DNA of 54,025 nt, taken from NCBI GenBank assembly GCA_018063015.1, contig JAGORC010000002.1, positions 1 to 54,025 of the forward strand, read 5' to 3'. This document shows, one piece after another, positions 4,316 to 49,249 of the stretch; position 1 is the stretch's first letter; the number at the start of each line of letters is the position of its first letter. This DNA is from Minisyncoccota bacterium (GTDB lineage Bacteria > Patescibacteriota > Minisyncoccia > Phycocordibacterales > UBA9973). The notes under the pieces were generated by a model that did not search any database, was not told the DNA's origin, and was given only the letters and a program-made list of their open reading frames with translations. A program made the position numbers and the translations under genes.

Positions 4316-5266
4316 ATGAAAAAAATTTTAGTTATAGGTGCGTGTGGTCAAATAGGGGTAGAGTTAACACTTGCTCTCCGGAATAAGTTTGGTGGTGAAA
4401 ATGTAATAGCAACCGATATCCGTGACGAACACGAAATGCTAAAAGGTACAGGACCTTTTACTATACTAGATGCACAAGATGCTAACGCGACTCGAGATTT
4501 AGTAAAAAAGGAAGGTGTCACAGATATTTATCTTCTTGCAGCATTACTGTCAGCAACAGGAGAGAAGAATCCTAAGCTTGCATGGGACTTAAATATGGGC
4601 AGTCTTCGTCAGATACTTGATTTAGGAGTTGATGAAAAGATAAAAATATTCTGGCCTTCATCTATTGCAGTCTTCGGTCCTACAACCCCAAGAGACAATA
4701 CTCAACAAAAGACAGTAGTAGAGCCGACAACAATGTATGGAATTACTAAGTATGCAGGAGAGTTGCTGTGCCAGTATTACAACAAACGCTTCGGCTTAGA
4801 TGTGCGGAGTGTTCGCTATCCAGGACTTATAAGCTGGAAGAGTGAGCCTGGAGGAGGAACAACTGACTACGCAGTAGAAATATTCTATGGTGCATTGAAA
4901 GAAGGTAAATACACTTCATTCTTGTCCGATAATACATATCTACCCATGATGTATATGGATGATGCCATTAGAGCCACAATAGAGCTTATGGAAGTAGATG
5001 CAAGTAAACTAAATTCAAGGATGGCTTACAATCTATCAGCTATAAGCTTCTCACCAAAGGAGATTGGAGAAGAAATAAAAAAGCATATTCCTAATTTTCA
5101 ACTAAGTTATGTAACCGAAGATCCAAGACAGAAGATTGCTGACGGCTGGCCTAAATCAATAGATGACTCTTCTGCGCGCAGTGACTGGGGATGGAAGCAG
5201 GAGTTTGATCTATCCAAGATGACTGAAGTAATGCTTAAGAACTTAAAAGATAAATTGAAATTATAA
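4316..5266 (+). CDS. tdh: L-threonine 3-dehydrogenase, SDR/epimerase-like type
   Basis: N-terminal Rossmann motif ILVIGACGQIG and YGITKYAGE (YxxxK). It lies directly upstream (1 nt) of a kbl-like gene. Confidence 0.7.
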   Translation: MKKILVIGACGQIGVELTLALRNKFGGENVIATDIRDEHEMLKGTGPFTILDAQDANATRDLVKKEGVTDIYLLAALLSATGEKNPKLAWDLNMGSLRQILDLGVDEKIKIFWPSSIAVFGPTTPRDNTQQKTVVEPTTMYGITKYAGELLCQYYNKRFGLDVRSVRYPGLISWKSEPGGGTTDYAVEIFYGALKEGKYTSFLSDNTYLPMMYMDDAIRATIELMEVDASKLNSRMAYNLSAISFSPKEIGEEIKKHIPNFQLSYVTEDPRQKIADGWPKSIDDSSARSDWGWKQEFDLSKMTEVMLKNLKDKLKL

Positions 5267-5267
5267 T

Positions 5268-6467
5268 ATGTACTCAAAAGAATTACAGGATAATATAAAC
5301 AAAGAACTAGAAAACCTGAAAGGAGCAGGGAAGTTTAAAGTTGAAAGAGAATTACAAGGAGCTCAAGGTGGAGAGGTAGAGATAAATGGGAAAAAAGTTC
5401 TAATGTTCGCATCAAACAATTATCTAGGGCTTGCAAACCATCCTGAAATTGTAGCTTCAGCAAGTGATGCATTAAAAGAATATGGATTTGGTTTATCTTC
5501 AGTAAGGTTTATTTCTGGAACTGAAACAATTCATAAGGAGTTAGAGAAGAAACTTGCAGAATTTCTGGGCGTTGAAGATACGATTCTTTATTCTACTAAT
5601 TTTATGTCTAACTTAGGATTCTTCGCATCGCTTACTAACGAACCCTTTGGACAGGAGAAATGGATGGATGCAATATATAGTGATGAGTTAAATCATGCTT
5701 CCATTATTGACGCTTTTAAGCTTTGCAAGAAAGATAATGTAGTAAAGAGAATTTATCCGCACGGAGACGTGGCAACTCTCGAGAAATTCTTAGAAGAAGA
5801 CAAAGACAAGGGTTATAGATTTAAGATAATAGTGACCGATGGTGTTTTCTCTATGGAAGGTTATCTAGCTGATTTACCTAAAATAAAAAATTTAGCAGAT
5901 AAATATGGAGCACTGCTTTTCGTTGATGATGCACATGCTGTAGGAGTCTTAGGGGAAAATGGGGCAGGTACACCTGAACATTTTGGTCTACATGGTCAGA
6001 TTGATGTACTCTCCGGAACTTTCGGCAAGGCTCTCGGTGGAGCAGTAGGAGGATATATTGCAGGAAAGCGTGAACTAATAGAACTACTTCGTCAGAAATC
6101 AAGAACTTACATGTTTTCTAATTCATTACCGCCCTCTGTAGTAGTTGCAACAATGAAGGCTCTGGATTTACTAACCCCAGAGTTACTAAATAAAGGAAAA
6201 GAAAATGCGAAATATTTCAGAGAAGAAGTGAAGAAGCTTGGATATGATGTATTAGATGGAGAACATGCGATAGTTCCTGTAATGCTAGGGGATGCTAAGA
6301 AGACTCAAGAAATGAGCAAGCTACTCTTAGAGAAAGGAATATATGTTGTGGGACTATGGTTCCCGGTTGTGCCTGAAGGTAAAGCCCGACTTCGATTCCA
6401 AGTATCTGCATCTCACACAAAAGACCAACTAGATAAAGCAATAAGCGTACTAAAAGAAATAAGATAA
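5268..6467 (+). CDS. kbl: 2-amino-3-ketobutyrate CoA ligase (glycine C-acetyltransferase)
   Basis: Alpha-oxoamine synthase family with PLP-lysine context SGTFGKALGG and DDAHAVG. Pairing with tdh favours Kbl over BioF. Confidence 0.8.
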   Translation: MYSKELQDNINKELENLKGAGKFKVERELQGAQGGEVEINGKKVLMFASNNYLGLANHPEIVASASDALKEYGFGLSSVRFISGTETIHKELEKKLAEFLGVEDTILYSTNFMSNLGFFASLTNEPFGQEKWMDAIYSDELNHASIIDAFKLCKKDNVVKRIYPHGDVATLEKFLEEDKDKGYRFKIIVTDGVFSMEGYLADLPKIKNLADKYGALLFVDDAHAVGVLGENGAGTPEHFGLHGQIDVLSGTFGKALGGAVGGYIAGKRELIELLRQKSRTYMFSNSLPPSVVVATMKALDLLTPELLNKGKENAKYFREEVKKLGYDVLDGEHAIVPVMLGDAKKTQEMSKLLLEKGIYVVGLWFPVVPEGKARLRFQVSASHTKDQLDKAISVLKEIR

Positions 6468-22911: not shown

Positions 22912-24616
22912 AACATATTCGACGAACAGAGTACGTGCTTGCCAGAATTGTAAGCTTGATTTCACAATAGAATCTGAAGATTTTAATTTCTATGAAAAAA
23001 TAAAAGTTCCTCCACCGACTTGGTGTCCGGAGTGTAGACAACAGAGACGTTATGCTTGGAGAAACGAGCGTACCTTATATAGAAGGAACTGTGATTTGTG
23101 TAATAAAAGTACTGTAACAATATATTCTCCAAACAAATCTTATAAAGTATATTGCAATTTTTGCTGGTGGAGTGATGGATGGGATTCGGCTTCTTACGGT
23201 AGAGATTTTGATTTTTCTCGTCCATTCTTTGAACAATTTAGAGAACTTCAACTAGACACTCCACGGATGGCTTTATTAAATAAAAATAGTACTAATTCAG
23301 AATACACAAATCATTCAGCTAATAACAAAGATGTCTATCTTTCGTTTTGTGTTTTTGACGGTGAGAATGTAATGAATAGTACTTGGGTTATGAAAAATTC
23401 TAGGGATTGTCTTGATTGTAGTTTTATTTATGAGAAAGGAGAGAGGCTGTATGAATGCATAGATTCTCGGTCTTCATATGGATCTCAGTATAGTTTATTT
23501 TTAAAGGATTGTTCAAACGTTTTTTATTCATTTGATTGTAGAAGTTCGAATGATTGCTTCTTATCTTCTAACTTACGTAATAAAAGTTATGTTTTTAAAA
23601 ACAAGCAGTATTCTAGGGAGGAGTATTTTGAAAAATTAAAAGAGTATAATCTTTCTTCATTTGAGACTAGAGAGAGATTAAATAAAGAATTTAAAGATAT
23701 GCTTGAGAATAGTGCTATATTTCGTTATGTAATCAGTGAAAGAAATATAAATTCTACAGGTTCATTAATGTTTGATTGTCGAAATGTTAAGTATTCTTTT
23801 GAAGTAGAAAAAGATGAAAATTGTAAATATATTTACGGAGGCCCTGAGCTAAAGGATTGTATGGACTTGTATCACGTAGGATACAATACAGAGCTTTGTT
23901 ATGAATGTCAGGGATGCACGAGGCTTTCTAATTGTCAGTTTTGTCATCTGTGTTATGACAATATGAACGTTATGTATTCTGACACTTGCCAAAATAGCCA
24001 GAATTTATTTGGTTGTGTATCTGTTAAAAAAGGGGAGTATATGATTTTCAATAAAAAATATTCCAAGGAAGACTTTCTGGTTCTTAAAGAAAAAATAATT
24101 GAACATATGAAAAAAACAGGTGAGTATGGAGAATTCTTCCCTCCTCAGATTGCACCTGTTTATTACAATGAGACACAGGGTAATCTTTATGCACCTATGA
24201 CCAAAGAGAAGGTTTTATCTTTAGGCTGGCAATGGGAAGATAACACTCCAGGAACCGTAGGCAAAGAAACAATAGATATTTTCTCTATACCAGACAGAAT
24301 AGAGGATGCACCAGATTCGTATTTAAAAGAAATTTTTGCCTGCATGGAATGCTCAAAGAACTACAATATATCTCAAAATGAGTTACTTTTTTATAAAAAA
24401 GAAAAAATTCCATTACCAAGAAGATGTCCAAACTGTAGATACAAAAGAAGATTTAATTTACGCCCTTTAAGACAACTTTGGCATAGAGAGTGTATGTGTG
24501 ACAAGAAACATTCTCATCATGAAGGAAAATGCGTAGAAGAATTTGAAACTTGTTATGCTCCAGATAGACCTGAGATAGTTTATTGCGAGAAGTGTTATAA
24601 CTCAGAGGTATATTGA
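22895..24616 (+). CDS. Cys-rich double-zinc-ribbon protein, paralog 1 (function unknown)
   Basis: 573 aa. Its ATG lies 17 nt inside the grpE 3' end. N-terminal CQNC...CPECR plus CDLC-x17-CNFC; Cys-ladder core; C-terminal CMEC...CPNCR plus ...YCEKCY. No signal peptide or TM. Confidence 0.85.
   Translation: MESQTKTYSTNRVRACQNCKLDFTIESEDFNFYEKIKVPPPTWCPECRQQRRYAWRNERTLYRRNCDLCNKSTVTIYSPNKSYKVYCNFCWWSDGWDSASYGRDFDFSRPFFEQFRELQLDTPRMALLNKNSTNSEYTNHSANNKDVYLSFCVFDGENVMNSTWVMKNSRDCLDCSFIYEKGERLYECIDSRSSYGSQYSLFLKDCSNVFYSFDCRSSNDCFLSSNLRNKSYVFKNKQYSREEYFEKLKEYNLSSFETRERLNKEFKDMLENSAIFRYVISERNINSTGSLMFDCRNVKYSFEVEKDENCKYIYGGPELKDCMDLYHVGYNTELCYECQGCTRLSNCQFCHLCYDNMNVMYSDTCQNSQNLFGCVSVKKGEYMIFNKKYSKEDFLVLKEKIIEHMKKTGEYGEFFPPQIAPVYYNETQGNLYAPMTKEKVLSLGWQWEDNTPGTVGKETIDIFSIPDRIEDAPDSYLKEIFACMECSKNYNISQNELLFYKKEKIPLPRRCPNCRYKRRFNLRPLRQLWHRECMCDKKHSHHEGKCVEEFETCYAPDRPEIVYCEKCYNSEVY
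22976..23038 (+). repeat. conserved 63-nt tract at the 5' end of paralog 1 (62/63 identical to 24670-24732)
   Basis: GAAGATTTTAATTTCTATGAAAAAATAAAAGTTCCTCCACCGACTTGGTGTCCGGAGTGTAGA, compared with the paralog 2 copy by hand. Confidence 0.9.
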
Positions 24617-26978: not shown

Positions 26979-27257
26979 ATGATAGATCCAAAAAAAGTAG
27001 ATTTTAATCAATTACCAAAGAAGTTCTGTGATGGAGCTCTTGGAGCTTTCGGGAAGGATGCAGTTATGTTTGCCATAACTTCTGGGAGCAATCTTGATCC
27101 ATATGCAACTACTCCCAGGATGGCAAAAAATATTGCAATATTTTTCAACCAACAAATTGAGAAATACGAAAAGCAATTCGGAGTAATAGATATGAGCCCA
27201 CCACTGATCCCAAGTCCCATTCAAGCAACTGACTTAGGTGATGAAAATAAAAAATAA
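26979..27257 (+). CDS. small conserved hypothetical protein (DUF3467-like, from memory)
   Basis: 92 aa. ...MAKNIAIFFNQQIEKYEKQFGVI resembles the C-terminal block I associate with DUF3467. It lies 36 nt upstream of dnaK. Confidence 0.4.
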   Translation: MIDPKKVDFNQLPKKFCDGALGAFGKDAVMFAITSGSNLDPYATTPRMAKNIAIFFNQQIEKYEKQFGVIDMSPPLIPSPIQATDLGDENKK

Positions 27258-46273: not shown

Positions 46274-46380
46274 TCTCTATTACTAGGACTTCTTTGTCAA
46301 AGCTAAAAGTTGGTAATTCTGTTTAAAAAATGTGGAGAAATACTCGTGCTCTAATGGTGAAGTATGATAATATATTAACT

Positions 46381-47346
46381 ATGGCAAATGAAACAAAGAA
46401 AATATTGCTTTCCGGCATACAGCCCTCAGGAAGGCCACATATTGGGAACTACTTCGGGATGATGAAGCAAATGGTTGATTATCAGAAGGAGCATGAAATG
46501 TATCTAATGATAGCTGATTATCACGCAATGAAATCAGTCCAGGACGCTAAATCAATGCGAGAAAATATAATAGGAGTGCTTTTGGATTTCCTAGCGATAG
46601 GACTTGATCCAAAGAAGGTAACTATATTTAAACAATCAGATGTATCAGAACACACAGAACTTGCTTGGATATTCGATACTATTACAACAATGCCTTATCT
46701 TATGCGTGCTCATGCCTTCAAGGATGCTGAAGCCAAGAACAAGGAAATAGATGTAGGTACATTTAACTATCCAATGCTTATGTCAGCTGATATTTTGATT
46801 TACAATGCAGACATTGTCCCAGTAGGCCAAGATCAGAAACAGCACATAGAAATAGCTAGAGATACAGCAATCAAATTCAATAATAAATTTGGCGAAACCT
46901 TCAAGATGCCTGATGCAATGATTATAAAAGATGTAGCCATAGTTCCTGGTACTGACGGACAGAAGATGAGTAAGAGTTATGGTAATACCATACCTCTTTT
47001 TGCAGAATACGAAGAAATAAAAAAGTGTGTGATGAGTATAGTCACTGATTCTAGTGGAGGAATTCCTAAGAATGTCTATGCTATTCATAACCTTCTAAGA
47101 CCGGCTTCTGAACTTCTGCCACTATATGAAAGCAAAGCAGGTAAATACAAAGAACTTAAAGATTTACTAGTAGAAGATCTAGAGAACTTTATTGCGCCAA
47201 TGAGAGAGAAGAGAAAGAAACTAGAGAAGACAATTCCTAAGGTTATAAAAATACTAAAAGATGGTGGGGTAAAGGCTAAGAAAGTAGCTTCTAAGAAGAT
47301 GCAGGAAGTAAAAAAGAAAGTAGGAGTTTCTGTATATGAAAAATAA
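46381..47346 (+). CDS. trpS: tryptophan--tRNA ligase
   Basis: SGIQPSGRPHIGNY (HIGH), VPVGQDQKQH, KMSKS. Start chosen at MANETKK (46381) rather than the track's 46330. Confidence 0.9.
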   Translation: MANETKKILLSGIQPSGRPHIGNYFGMMKQMVDYQKEHEMYLMIADYHAMKSVQDAKSMRENIIGVLLDFLAIGLDPKKVTIFKQSDVSEHTELAWIFDTITTMPYLMRAHAFKDAEAKNKEIDVGTFNYPMLMSADILIYNADIVPVGQDQKQHIEIARDTAIKFNNKFGETFKMPDAMIIKDVAIVPGTDGQKMSKSYGNTIPLFAEYEEIKKCVMSIVTDSSGGIPKNVYAIHNLLRPASELLPLYESKAGKYKELKDLLVEDLENFIAPMREKRKKLEKTIPKVIKILKDGGVKAKKVASKKMQEVKKKVGVSVYEK

Positions 47347-47629
47347 ACAAAAACTAGAAGAATACAAAAAAGAAATTGTTAATGTTTTTTCTCAAATTGG
47401 AGTTGATAAGAATTTAATGAAAGAACTTCTGGTGGATATTCTTACTCCAAAAGAGCTTGAAGAGGTCGCTCTAAGGTGGCAGATAGTAAAAAGACTAAAT
47501 AAAGGAGACAAGCACAGGGACGTAGCAGGGGAGCTCTGTATTGGGATAAGTACTGTTACTCGTGGTTCAAGAGAGCTAAGGAATAAGAAAGGAGGATTTG
47601 CACTCGTCCTTAACAAGCTAAGCAAATAA
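47336..47629 (+). CDS. TrpR-family (YerC/YecD-like) DNA-binding protein
   Basis: 97 aa. DILTPKELEEVALRWQIVKRL...GISTVTRGSRELR aligns with the E. coli TrpR block [20 protein letters not shown]...GIATITRGSNSLK. It overlaps the trpS 3' end by 11 nt. Confidence 0.75.
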   Translation: MKNKQKLEEYKKEIVNVFSQIGVDKNLMKELLVDILTPKELEEVALRWQIVKRLNKGDKHRDVAGELCIGISTVTRGSRELRNKKGGFALVLNKLSK

Positions 47630-47694
47630 TAAGTTTTAGTGGTTTTCCACATTTTTCTATAAAATACACTTGTATTATTTTTTTATTATACTAT

Positions 47695-47710
47695 CATGTA
47701 CTAGTACATG
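47695..47710. promoter_or_regulatory. perfect 16-bp palindrome CATGTACTAGTACATG (trp-operator-like)
   Basis: Contains TGTACTAGT, which matches the arm of the symmetric E. coli trp operator TGTACTAGTTAACTAGTAC (from memory). A -10-like TATACT lies at 47687-47692, immediately upstream. Confidence 0.5.
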
Positions 47711-47715
47711 GATAC

Positions 47716-47790
47716 AAAAATCAACAACGGTATAGGTTTCTGGTGGGGCGCAGATAGCTTGATGCTTTTGCGCTGATTTGTTGATTTCTT
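47716..47790 (+). ncRNA. candidate structured RNA or leader (class unknown)
   Basis: The 10-bp outer helix AAATCAACAA (47718-27) / TTGTTGATTT (47778-87) encloses an inner GCGCA (47748-52) / TGCGC (47769-73) helix. A terminator follows. Confidence 0.25.
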
Positions 47791-47814
47791 TCTCTAGATT
47801 TAAAGGAATTTATT

Positions 47815-47843
47815 AACCGGCCCAAAAGCCGGTTTTGTTATTT
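47815..47843 (+). terminator. rho-independent terminator
   Basis: AACCGGC-CCAAAA-GCCGGTT followed by TTGTTATTT. Confidence 0.7.
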
Positions 47844-47883
47844 GAAAACTAAATTAATAAATCTAAAAACAAAGGAGGAAAAA

Positions 47884-48141
47884 ATGACAACTTATTTTAG
47901 AACCAAGGTAAAAGTAGGCTTTGGCAGTAAAGAACACGACACAGGATATCCTGGACTAATTTGTAAGATTCCAGAATTAGAAATTCCTAAGGGCGAAGAG
48001 TTTTCTGTAGAGTATATGTATAATAACATGTGTATACTGAAATATAATTTACACTACCTTCCTGTTGAAATTTTTACAATAGGAAAGTTTTTACTTGAAG
48101 GTGACATTACACAGATAGATGCTCCTCGGGTAGACTGGTAG
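47884..48141 (+). CDS. small hypothetical protein (85 aa)
   Basis: ATG at 47884 preceded by AAAGGAGG (47871-47878) with good spacing. No recognisable family. Confidence 0.45.
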   Translation: MTTYFRTKVKVGFGSKEHDTGYPGLICKIPELEIPKGEEFSVEYMYNNMCILKYNLHYLPVEIFTIGKFLLEGDITQIDAPRVDW

Positions 48142-48193
48142 AAGTGATTAGTTTTCTAACTATGGAGTTTTTCAGGATTTAATTTCAGCTTTT

Positions 48194-48230
48194 ACAGTGA
48201 GCGAATAATAAAATTTGCTCACTGTTTTTA
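48194..48230 (+). terminator. rho-independent terminator
   Basis: ACAGTGAGC-(14-nt loop)-GCTCACTGT followed by TTTTTAATTT. Confidence 0.6.
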
Positions 48231-48316
48231 ATTTGACAGAAGTTACATCCTTATGTAATGTAGGGGTAGTTATTGTTGTCTTTTGTAAATAAAATCTATA
48301 AAATAAAACCACACGT

Positions 48317-49249
48317 ATGAAATCAAATTCAAAAATTTTCGGAGGTACTGCTTCAGAAGCATTAGCTAAACAAATAGCAAAAGGCCTCAGAAAGGCAAAT
48401 GGGAAAATTGTAATGAGAAGGTTCTCAGATGGAGAATTCTCTCCGTATTTCAATGAAAGCATCAGAGGTTCTGATGTATTTTTAGTTCAATCAACATTTT
48501 CTCCTACTGAAAACCTATTTGAGTTAATTATGTTGATTGATGCAGCCAAAAGAGCTTCGGCTCATTACATTATCCCTGTCATCCCTTATTTTGGCTTTGC
48601 TAGGCAGGACCGCAAGGATCGCCCTCGCACAGCGATTACCGCAAAGGTAATAGCCAATATGCTGGAAGGTGCTGGTGCAACCAGAGTTATAACAATGGAT
48701 TTGCATGCACCACAAATTCAGGGGTTCTTCGACATTCCGGTAGATCACCTTATGGCGTCAGCTGTTTTTGCTCCCTACATCAAGAAAATGAAGGTTCCAA
48801 ATCTTACATTTGCAGCACCTGACACAGGAAGTGCTGATAGGGTTCGGAAGTACGCAAACTATTTTAACGCTGACCTGGTGATTTGCGATAAGTTCCGCAA
48901 GAAGCCGAACGAAGTCGGGAAAATAACTGTAATCGGTGATGTTACTGACAGAAACGTTATCATTATTGATGACTTAGCTGATACAGCTGGTACATTATGC
49001 AAAACAGCTGAAGCTATCATGGCAAAAGGTGCAAAGAGTGTCAGAGCTTTCTGTACCCACCCAGTTCTGTCCGGCAATGCATACGAAAACATCGAGAATT
49101 CTCCACTCTTGGAGTTGATCACCACTGACACGATTCCACTGAAGCGAAAGAGTAAGAAGATTAAGGTTTTATCCGTAGCAGAGCTTTTTGCTACGGCCAT
49201 TGAAAGAGTTTATACCAACAAATCCGTAAATGGATTGTTTGTACTTTAA
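48317..49249 (+). CDS. prs: ribose-phosphate pyrophosphokinase
   Basis: FSDGEF, PYFGFARQDRKD, TMDLHAPQIQGFF, IIIDDLADTAGTL (PRPP loop). Confidence 0.92.
   Translation: MKSNSKIFGGTASEALAKQIAKGLRKANGKIVMRRFSDGEFSPYFNESIRGSDVFLVQSTFSPTENLFELIMLIDAAKRASAHYIIPVIPYFGFARQDRKDRPRTAITAKVIANMLEGAGATRVITMDLHAPQIQGFFDIPVDHLMASAVFAPYIKKMKVPNLTFAAPDTGSADRVRKYANYFNADLVICDKFRKKPNEVGKITVIGDVTDRNVIIIDDLADTAGTLCKTAEAIMAKGAKSVRAFCTHPVLSGNAYENIENSPLLELITTDTIPLKRKSKKIKVLSVAELFATAIERVYTNKSVNGLFVL

Follow-up and report, generated by a model that had tools for sequence, protein, structure and literature searches.

A predicted tryptophan-sensing switch behind the trpS-trpR gene pair of a Minisyncoccota bacterium, conserved among bacteria of the candidate phyla radiation

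Members of the candidate phyla radiation (CPR, or Patescibacteria) are thought to be auxotrophs for the most part and to depend on partners, and to our knowledge almost nothing is known about their gene regulation. Here we examined a 54,025-nucleotide (nt) stretch from a Minisyncoccota bacterium (assembly GCA_018063015.1, contig JAGORC010000002.1, positions 1 to 54,025 of the forward strand; hereafter the window), in which a homologue of the tryptophan repressor gene trpR follows the tryptophan--tRNA ligase gene trpS and is itself followed by a perfect palindrome. We propose, with a probability that we put at roughly 0.85, that positions 47336 to about 48225 form a two-layer switch of the E. 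coli trp type that senses tryptophan, here in a CPR genome and driving a gene that is not a trp gene. The analysis covered sequence features, conservation, covariation, synteny, how often the operator accompanies TrpR genes, and which genes follow the switch in relatives; from these we infer DNA binding, the ligand, promoter activity, translation of the leader and the regulatory outcome.

The trpS-trpR gene pair

The first gene of the pair, trpS (46381-47346, plus strand), scores 274.5 bits against NCBIfam TIGR00233 (cutoff 176.75) and matches the Pfam domain tRNA-synt_1b with an E value of 4e-62. Its likely start is the ATG at 46381, and an alternative ATG lies upstream at 46330. The second gene, the trpR homologue (47336-47629, plus strand), encodes 97 amino acids (aa) and overlaps trpS by 11 nt (47336-47346). 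The arrangement is not restricted to the window, since about 20 CPR loci likewise have trpS directly upstream of trpR.

The 97-aa protein passes the cutoff of Pfam Trp_repressor (PF01371; 55.7 bits against 27, E value 5e-15) and reaches 46.4 bits with NCBIfam TrpR (TIGR01321), whose equivalog cutoff is 67.25; it is therefore a member of the TrpR family and not a certified equivalog. A preliminary description of this DNA, made from the sequence alone, had called the protein TrpR/YerC-type. The first half of that label holds, whereas membership in YerC/YecD was rejected, because the score with the corresponding NCBIfam model (TIGR02531) was 19.6 bits against a cutoff of 42.2, and because the best sequence matches among solved structures were to E. 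coli TrpR (E value about 1e-5), the YerC-like structures 3g1c, 3frw and 3kor giving E values of about 0.1. By these scores the protein stands closer to true TrpR than to YerC/YecD. An AlphaFold2 (AF2) monomer model built with 32 homologues as input had a predicted local distance difference test (pLDDT) score of 91 and six helices, and the top 28 Foldseek matches of this model were all E. coli TrpR, with template modelling (TM) scores of 0.74-0.76 to 1tro and 1trr. On the strength of the model we confidently assign to the protein the TrpR fold of six helices with a helix-turn-helix formed by helices D and E.

In E. coli TrpR, Thr44, Arg54, Arg69, Thr81, Thr83, Arg84 and Gly85 sandwich the corepressor or read the DNA, and the corepressor pocket comprises Arg54, Arg84, Thr44, Thr81, Gly85 and Ser88. 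When the CPR homologues were aligned to E. coli TrpR, the equivalents of T44, R54, R69, T81, T83, R84 and G85 were found to be invariant in all 32. A large protein database holds 224 members of this family, and those labelled by organism come from CPR/Patescibacteria.

A conserved palindrome over a predicted promoter

A perfect palindrome of 16 base pairs (bp), CATGTACTAGTACATG (47695-47710), lies 65 nt beyond the trpR stop (intervening sequence 47630-47694) and is the predicted TrpR operator. The gene overlap, the gap and the palindrome coordinates are all as the preliminary description gave them, and the palindrome scan that it proposed, made over the window, returned CATGTACTAGTACATG once; no second copy of the operator, or of the attenuator described below, was found in the window. 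The window is rich in A and T and contains three perfect 16-bp palindromes, where first-order Markov simulations gave 1.4 on average, the other two being CTTTTTTATAAAAAAG and AAATATTGCAATATTT (24386-24401 and 27128-27143). The palindrome is thus not significant by itself; what makes it significant is its conservation across genomes and its association with TrpR genes.

To follow the site through related bacteria we aligned 25 CPR loci, labelled Nomurabacteria, Saccharibacteria, Paceibacterota or Patescibacteria, whose TrpR proteins are 56-85% identical. The core of the palindrome, ATGTACTAGTAC (47696-47707 in the window), is invariant in all 25, lies 60-100 nt past the trpR stop and occupies a fixed position over the -10 element. 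The synteny that the preliminary description had put up for checking, with trpS, the trpR-like gene and the palindrome kept together in relatives, was borne out, and the arrangement, which had been thought unusual, proved to be a conserved CPR cassette and not a peculiarity of this genome.

The predicted promoter consists of a -35 element TTGTAT (47670-47675), of which the TTG is conserved at its position in the alignment of CPR loci, and a -10 element TATCAT (47692-47697) that overlaps the left edge of the operator, both on the plus strand. The 25 loci share this geometry; their -10 column contains TATCAT or TACTAT and the -35 elements resemble TTGCAT; the 16-nt spacer between the two elements in the window matches that of loci L017 (TTGCTT) and L002 (TTGCAA). 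We had also considered TATACT (47687-47692), the -10 element of the preliminary description, which is present as reported; it was rejected in that role because it is only 11 nt from the conserved -35 and the spacing in relatives favours TATCAT, so that the conserved -10 is 5 nt further downstream. With this correction the start of transcription is still predicted inside the palindrome, at about 47703-47706, and the operator would cover both the -10 and the start site of a putative downstream promoter. The repression geometry first suggested for the site is strongly supported by comparative genomics, and also by the invariant Trp-pocket and DNA-reading residues of the protein and its predicted TrpR fold.

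We then scanned one genome from each of 185,579 species for the extended 20-nt site, TGTACTAGTACAYRRATACA. The scan returned 111 stretches against about 9 expected by chance according to our estimate. At 84 of 104 new loci, in CPR, Gammaproteobacteria and SAR116, the extended site adjoins a TrpR-family gene, which indicates that the site travels with genes of this family across three phyla. The gene starts 20-140 nt downstream of the site at 67 of the 104 loci, which belong to marine Gammaproteobacteria (e.g. Marinomonas, Marinobacter), SAR116 Alphaproteobacteria and a few others, and ends 50-100 nt upstream of it, in the CPR layout, at 17; at 18 no TrpR-family gene was present within the DNA fetched around the site. 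The association between site and gene is the strongest available evidence that CATGTACTAGTACATG would serve as a TrpR operator. At 55 of 65 loci with trpR downstream, trpR starts with the ATG that the site contains and the proteins begin MNT, and in CPR the same ATG opens the leader peptide described below (MNT or MDT). The shared start could reflect either a constraint imposed by the extended operator or common descent.

The resemblance to the E. coli trp operator noted in the preliminary description also held: GTACTAGT/ACTAGTAC are common to both sites, and the E. coli sequence was verified 5' of trpL in 5421 of 5426 genomes. By sequence, the site has the features of a TrpR operator, namely half-sites containing ACTAG, with GTACTAGTAC lying over the -10 and the start site. 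We take GTACTAGTAC to be the core of the 'half-site' DNA in PDB entry 1TRR, in which two E. coli TrpR dimers are bound in tandem. Directly 3' of the palindrome is an extension, GATACA (47711-47716, plus strand), a candidate extra half-site 8 bp from AGTACA; RRATACA occupies this position in nearly all CPR and proteobacterial sites, and we interpret GATACA as a putative tandem half-site.

No operator-like site was found 5' of trpS-trpR in the window or in the relatives searched, so trpR here appears to lack autoregulation, unlike that of E. coli. One candidate in this region, ATTACTAGGAC at 46281-46291, was ruled out as an operator upstream of trpS because it is not conserved. We also observed that some CPR metagenome-assembled genomes carry two copies of the extended operator on separate contigs (L118 and L044, Harrisonbacteria; L066 and L077), and that in L118 the extended operator stands 5' of trpR, the autoregulated layout. 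Two copies in one genome imply that some TrpR regulons of CPR have more than one target.

Leader peptide and attenuator

The preliminary description supposed that a small RNA or an open reading frame (ORF) downstream of the palindrome was controlled by it. Something regulated does appear to lie there, although its nature, a trpL-type leader with a terminator and an antiterminator, had not been seen. This attenuator spans 47708-47845, behind the operator. Its trpL-like leader peptide ORF, MDTKINNGIGFWWGADSLMLLR and a stop (47708-47776, plus strand), has 22 codons and a start codon inside the operator, and it contains two tandem Trp codons, TGG TGG (47741-47746), which would be the sensor and whose alignment columns are invariant or nearly so. 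The Trp-Trp pair (WW) is in frame at 19 further genome loci, with the consensus MKNK..K.NK..KSWWGAK..AFA.FC, and in all 70 copies of the attenuator found in metagenomes. A twentieth genome locus (L025, near 4013) has a Trp-Arg variant, in which TGG CGG replaces TGG TGG while the rest of the attenuator is intact. Given that TGGTGG is conserved though unpaired in every structure model, its coding for Trp is the simplest reason for its conservation. Two further segments of the leader, TTGTTGATTTCT and GGAATCCATTAAG, are nearly invariant.

The predicted RNA elements, all on the plus strand, have the order expected of such an attenuator. Hairpin 1:2 (47747-47758 with 47764-47774) follows right after the Trp codons and is part of the minimum free energy fold of the window RNA; the WW codons end at 47746 and segment 1 begins at 47747, while the leader stop TGA (47774-47776) coincides with the 3' end of segment 2. 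The antiterminator 2:3 (47764-47791 with 47802-47829) was obtained as an RNAalifold consensus. The intrinsic terminator 3:4 with its T-run (47815-47845) was found by a terminator scan, and its stem (47815-47821 with 47828-47834, thus 47815-47834 in all) is followed by TTTTGTTATTT.

Both helices are supported by the alignments. In an alignment of 20 sequences 95.5% of the antiterminator cells are paired and nine pairs show compensatory change, a result matched by none of 500 shuffles, and when the helix was slid along the alignment as a control, pairing dropped to 33-51%. For the terminator and hairpin 1:2, counted jointly, 82% of cells are paired and six pairs are changed on both sides; most of the unpaired cells come from three sequences, including the window, in which the terminator is aligned in a shifted register. 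Free window RNA folds as hairpin 1:2 plus terminator. When the positions that a ribosome stalled at the Trp codons would cover were masked, the same RNA folded into a 24-pair antiterminator, and when it was masked up to a ribosome at the stop codon, into the terminator. Covariation and masked folding thus both support a model in which terminator and antiterminator are mutually exclusive.

No Rfam family matched the whole window at the gathering score, and none matched 47600-48330 even at E values up to 10; readings as a T-box (RF00230), a Trp_leader (RF00513) or a riboswitch were dropped for want of such a match. A scan for tRNA and tmRNA likewise found nothing. A covariance model built from the attenuator itself found exactly one copy in the window, with 83.8 bits, and, of the other loci searched, strongly matched only those of CPR with trpR upstream. 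About half of the 70 metagenomic copies (L147-L214) have no GTACTAGTAC within 400 nt upstream, which indicates that the attenuator occurs also without the TrpR operator; two metagenome contigs (L151 and L213) carry two attenuator copies each, 2.5 kb apart. Three Peribacteria loci (L006, L010, L015) have the same operator followed by much shorter leaders with WW in frame, MNKKSKIWWAKIE, and a different terminator/antiterminator pair. The gene that follows in L010 encodes a TrpE-like protein, and in L015 a 38%-identical trpR diverges from the operator.

Regulated genes and their surroundings

Synteny around the switch is strongly conserved, in the order dnaB (minus strand), trpS, trpR, operator and leader, a variable stretch, and aspS. 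In the window the gene directly behind the attenuator, which we call the cargo gene, is an orphan ORF of 85 aa (47884-48141, plus strand) preceded by the Shine-Dalgarno (SD) sequence GGAGG (47874-47878). A search of 5.8 billion proteins found a single homologue of its product, 73% identical and with the same locus layout in the closest relative; the protein had no Pfam or NCBIfam match, and its AF2 model (pLDDT 52) was unusable. A terminator-like hairpin with a 13-bp stem and a T-run (48194-48225, plus strand) stands before prs and probably ends the regulated unit there, and a promoter-like site lies at 48276-48304, 5' of prs. Between the window and the closest relative the stretch from operator to SD is about 97% identical and the cargo coding DNA about 80%, which indicates that the regulatory region is under stronger constraint than the cargo.

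The preliminary description had stated that the window contains no Trp biosynthesis genes, and a tblastn search of its 54 kb with TrpA, B, C, D, E and G from CPR bacteria gave none. The cassette in some relatives is followed by genes for TrpE, TrpE with TrpG, a TrpD-TrpC fusion or TrpA, and in others by those for a pyridoxal phosphate enzyme like TrpB (PALP domain; TrpB named from sequence motifs) or a protein like the synthase of indole-3-glycerol phosphate (IGPS). In L002 the cargo at 4553-5707 is an N-methyl-L-tryptophan oxidase of SolA type (320 bits against an equivalog cutoff of 257), preceded by a gene for a 300-aa protein that matches no family; the placing of this oxidase under the Trp switch suggests salvage of Trp from N-methyl-Trp. 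Such cargo ties the cassette to tryptophan supply.

Commoner as cargo are families without a match in Pfam or NCBIfam, or without an evident link to Trp. Recurrent among the cargo are a family of 478-483 aa, a 'CPDY' family with a phosphatase-like partner, one of 427 aa and one of 343-347 aa, and the variable stretch also holds prs-like paralogues, an Asp/Glu racemase and a phosphoenolpyruvate-utilising enzyme. The stretch from leader to aspS resembles a cargo island (L002, L017-L039, L147-L214; 47850-49324 in the window). The cassette is a conserved one of Nomurabacteria-, Saccharibacteria- and Paceibacteria-type CPR bacteria.

Several other conserved elements lie close to the switch. One is GTTATTTGAAAA (47837-47848, plus strand), between the attenuator and the ribosome-binding site of the cargo gene, a copy of an element, (A)GTTCTTTGRAAA, that occurs in nearly all related loci (e.g. 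L022, L029, L031, L032, L036), including cases where the gene comes directly after the operator and the WW leader is absent; it is no general motif of the window. Another is a DnaA-box-like 9-mer, TTTTCCACA (47643-47651, plus strand), which takes the form TTATCCACA in most relatives, stands at a constant distance of about 19 nt 5' of the -35 in all 25 aligned CPR loci and is not a general motif of the window either. It may be a site for an activator or a DnaA regulatory site. A replication origin as the source of such motifs was rejected because the GC skew stays positive, tracks the coding strand and shows no switch nearby. An inverted copy of the box is present at 46331-46339, 5' of trpS, where relatives conserve an inverted TGTGGA(C/G)AA. 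Also upstream of trpS we noticed an extended -10, TATGATAAT, about 7 nt before its ATG (46365-46383), and relatives keep TATGMTAATATA just 5' of the start; an extended -10 so near the ATG suggests that the trpS mRNA is leaderless or nearly so.

The proposed switch and its alternatives

The switch that we propose would work as follows. In its first layer the TrpR homologue, co-transcribed with trpS, would use L-tryptophan as corepressor, and the Trp-bound protein on 47695-47710 would cover the -10 and the start site and so block initiation. The second layer would act on transcripts that escape repression, and probably also on those that read through from trpS-trpR, which must run into the leader because no terminator separates trpR from the palindrome. 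These transcripts would encode the 22-codon leader with its two adjacent Trp codons. With charged tRNA-Trp plentiful, the ribosome would reach the stop and cover segment 2, the terminator would form and transcription would end at 47835-47845. With charged tRNA-Trp scarce, the ribosome would stall on UGG UGG and cover segment 1, the 2:3 antiterminator would form and RNA polymerase would continue into the 85-aa ORF.

Several observations weigh against this proposal. The operator is a palindrome of 14-16 bp centred on CTAG, whereas the E. coli site spans 18-20 bp around a central TTAA, and with so different an architecture the mode or stoichiometry of binding may differ from that in E. coli. The TrpR homologue falls short of the equivalog cutoff (46.4 against 67.25 bits), and two positions of the pocket differ from E. 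coli, Ser88 being replaced by Glu and Leu41 by Asp in all or nearly all of the 32 CPR homologues. An operator for the autoregulation of trpR, which is a feature of the E. coli system though not a strictly defining one, is absent. Only about 2-5 nt separate the leader start codon, which lacks an SD sequence, from the predicted start site, so that translation of the leader would have to be leaderless-like; this step is the weakest of the proposal. The 85-aa ORF has no recognisable link to tryptophan, and the attenuator of the window therefore does not precede a gene for Trp supply. Lastly, the window sequence was found only in DNA metagenomes, and four candidate runs gave no RNA coverage.

We considered whether these observations are better explained in other ways. 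The substitution of Ser88 and Leu41 and the score below the equivalog cutoff would fit a repressor whose ligand is not L-tryptophan (indole or a Trp derivative, for example) or that binds DNA with none, the attenuator alone sensing Trp; titles of PDB entries record indole-3-acetic acid as bound by variants of E. coli TrpR at T44, T81 and S88. We regard this as unlikely, in view of the invariance of the Arg54/Arg84 pair, Thr44, Thr81 and Gly85 and of the regulated cargo of relatives, which is Trp biosynthesis or salvage. The regulation might instead take place at the level of RNA, by a T-box, a leader bound by the trp RNA-binding attenuation protein (TRAP), a riboswitch or a 5' stability hairpin. 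The palindrome can form a 6-bp RNA hairpin, and T-boxes have a UGGN bulge, which UGGUGG superficially resembles. Such control is, however, extremely unlikely: there is no match to an Rfam T-box, Trp_leader or riboswitch even at an E value of 10 and no run of (G/U)AG triplets, the WW pair is always in frame, and the same DNA site is found at the trpR promoters of Proteobacteria, where it overlaps the start codon.

The remaining alternatives accept the attenuator and differ from our proposal in what it is for. The transcript of about 140 nt (47704-47845) could act mainly in trans, as a TrpR-controlled small RNA (sRNA) or through its peptide, with the 85-aa ORF an unrelated neighbour. This would account for a conservation of the leader that goes far beyond the needs of pairing (TTGTTGATTTCT and GGAATCCATTAAG nearly invariant; 97% identity against about 80% for the cargo) and for a cargo that is different in almost every lineage, and it has a precedent in rnTrpL/peTrpL of Sinorhizobium meliloti (PMC6614838, PMC7298713). 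The WW frame, the position of the stop and the mutually exclusive helices nevertheless fit a cis-acting attenuator exactly, and trp genes, wherever they are present, are immediately 3' of the cassette. A function in trans would in any case supplement the cis switch and not supplant it, and as a replacement for it we hold such a function to be decidedly unlikely. The attenuator might, on the other hand, be a relic, its terminator merely ending the trpS-trpR operon and the 85-aa ORF being no meaningful target of Trp control. The lack of a terminator between trpR and the palindrome, the orphan nature of the cargo and the absence of trp genes from the window are all compatible with this. Against a relic speak the operator, the promoter, the leader ORF and the two helices, all of which are intact and hardly differ in the closest relative, as well as the 85-aa ORF, which has a strong SD, its own terminator, 73% protein identity and many silent differences in its coding DNA; we consider this explanation very unlikely.

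We therefore return to the two-layer Trp switch and to what it would mean. Its components are each of a known kind, a TrpR-family repressor with its operator and a trpL-type ribosome-mediated attenuator, and the mechanism is an ordinary one. What distinguishes it is its place in the CPR lineage, a family of leader RNA that Rfam lacks, a trpR that is part of the trpS operon without its own operator, an operator that contains the leader start codon, and a hypervariable and mostly uncharacterised cargo. In the searchable literature we found no paper that connects TrpR or Trp attenuation with CPR/Patescibacteria, which is absence of evidence only. If our interpretation is right, the two textbook layers of E. 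coli trp control occur together in reduced genomes, wired to the gene for the Trp-charging enzyme. The analysis also yields an RNA family new to Rfam, an operator motif common to three phyla and, by guilt by association, the label 'induced on Trp starvation' for several uncharacterised protein families; for the window it provides the annotation of a predicted TrpR operator, promoter, trpL-like leader, attenuator and orphan target gene.

Two wider ideas follow. Operator and WW attenuator may together form a portable Trp-starvation switch that sits at a fixed site between trpS-trpR and aspS and has its cargo swapped, the uncharacterised cargo possibly serving to obtain or spare Trp in auxotrophs. 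We offer this tentatively, as something to which we would give rather less than an even chance; if true, the cassette marks a set of candidate Trp-scavenging genes. More speculatively, the leader peptide may owe its head (MNT/MDT) to descent from the 5' end of a trpR gene autoregulated like that of the marine Proteobacteria.

Comparison with known systems

The Firmicutes YerC/YecD proteins (TIGR02531; 3g1c, 3frw, 3kor) have the same fold and size as the 97-aa protein and differ in the much weaker score that it obtains with their model (19.6 bits, cutoff 42.2). In Sinorhizobium meliloti the attenuator RNA rnTrpL and the leader peptide peTrpL act in trans (PMC6614838, PMC7298713). Both that system and ours have a ribosome-dependent Trp attenuator, and in either case the terminated RNA and the peptide could have separate functions, but there is no sequence similarity between them and no function in trans is needed here.

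Among reduced genomes the nearest system is the trpRBA operon of Chlamydia trachomatis (PMC7755916, PMC6504234), which is reported to have a TrpR operator 5' of trpR and an intergenic region under the iron-dependent repressor YtgR. The likeness to our locus consists in a reduced genome, in a trpR directly 5' of an intergenic regulatory region, which in Chlamydia is followed by genes for Trp supply, and in a combination of repression with Trp-dependent attenuation; the two differ in that the operator here is 3' of trpR and that attenuation here looks like the classical ribosome-mediated kind.

The trpR genes of marine Gammaproteobacteria (cultured genera such as Marinomonas and Marinobacter, with Oceanospirillales and Cellvibrionales) and of SAR116 share with the CPR loci the identical 20-nt site TGTACTAGTACATGAATACA (L042-L145), and their TrpR proteins are of similar size and 36-51% identical to CPR TrpR. 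Their site, in contrast, is on the promoter of trpR itself, a short trpR that would be autoregulated, and four representative loci from these groups contained no WW leader or attenuator of the CPR type.

The closest parallel in design is with the E. coli trp system. It differs from ours in its operator (18-20 bp on TTAA, whereas here 14-16 bp on CTAG are followed by GATACA 8 bp on), in its leader RNA, as ours has no detectable similarity to Rfam Trp_leader, in the place of the leader start codon, which is here inside the operator, in the position of trpR, which here shares an operon with trpS and lacks a separate operator, and in the genes controlled, trpEDCBA there and an orphan ORF here. Both layers are nevertheless present in each: a TrpR-family operator over the -10 and the start site, with GTACTAGT/ACTAGTAC common to the two and an almost identical recognition helix that reads GISTVTRGS here and GIATITRGS in E. 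coli, and a leader with two adjacent Trp codons just 5' of segment 1, a stop at segment 2 and the same segment logic of 1:2, 2:3 and 3:4.

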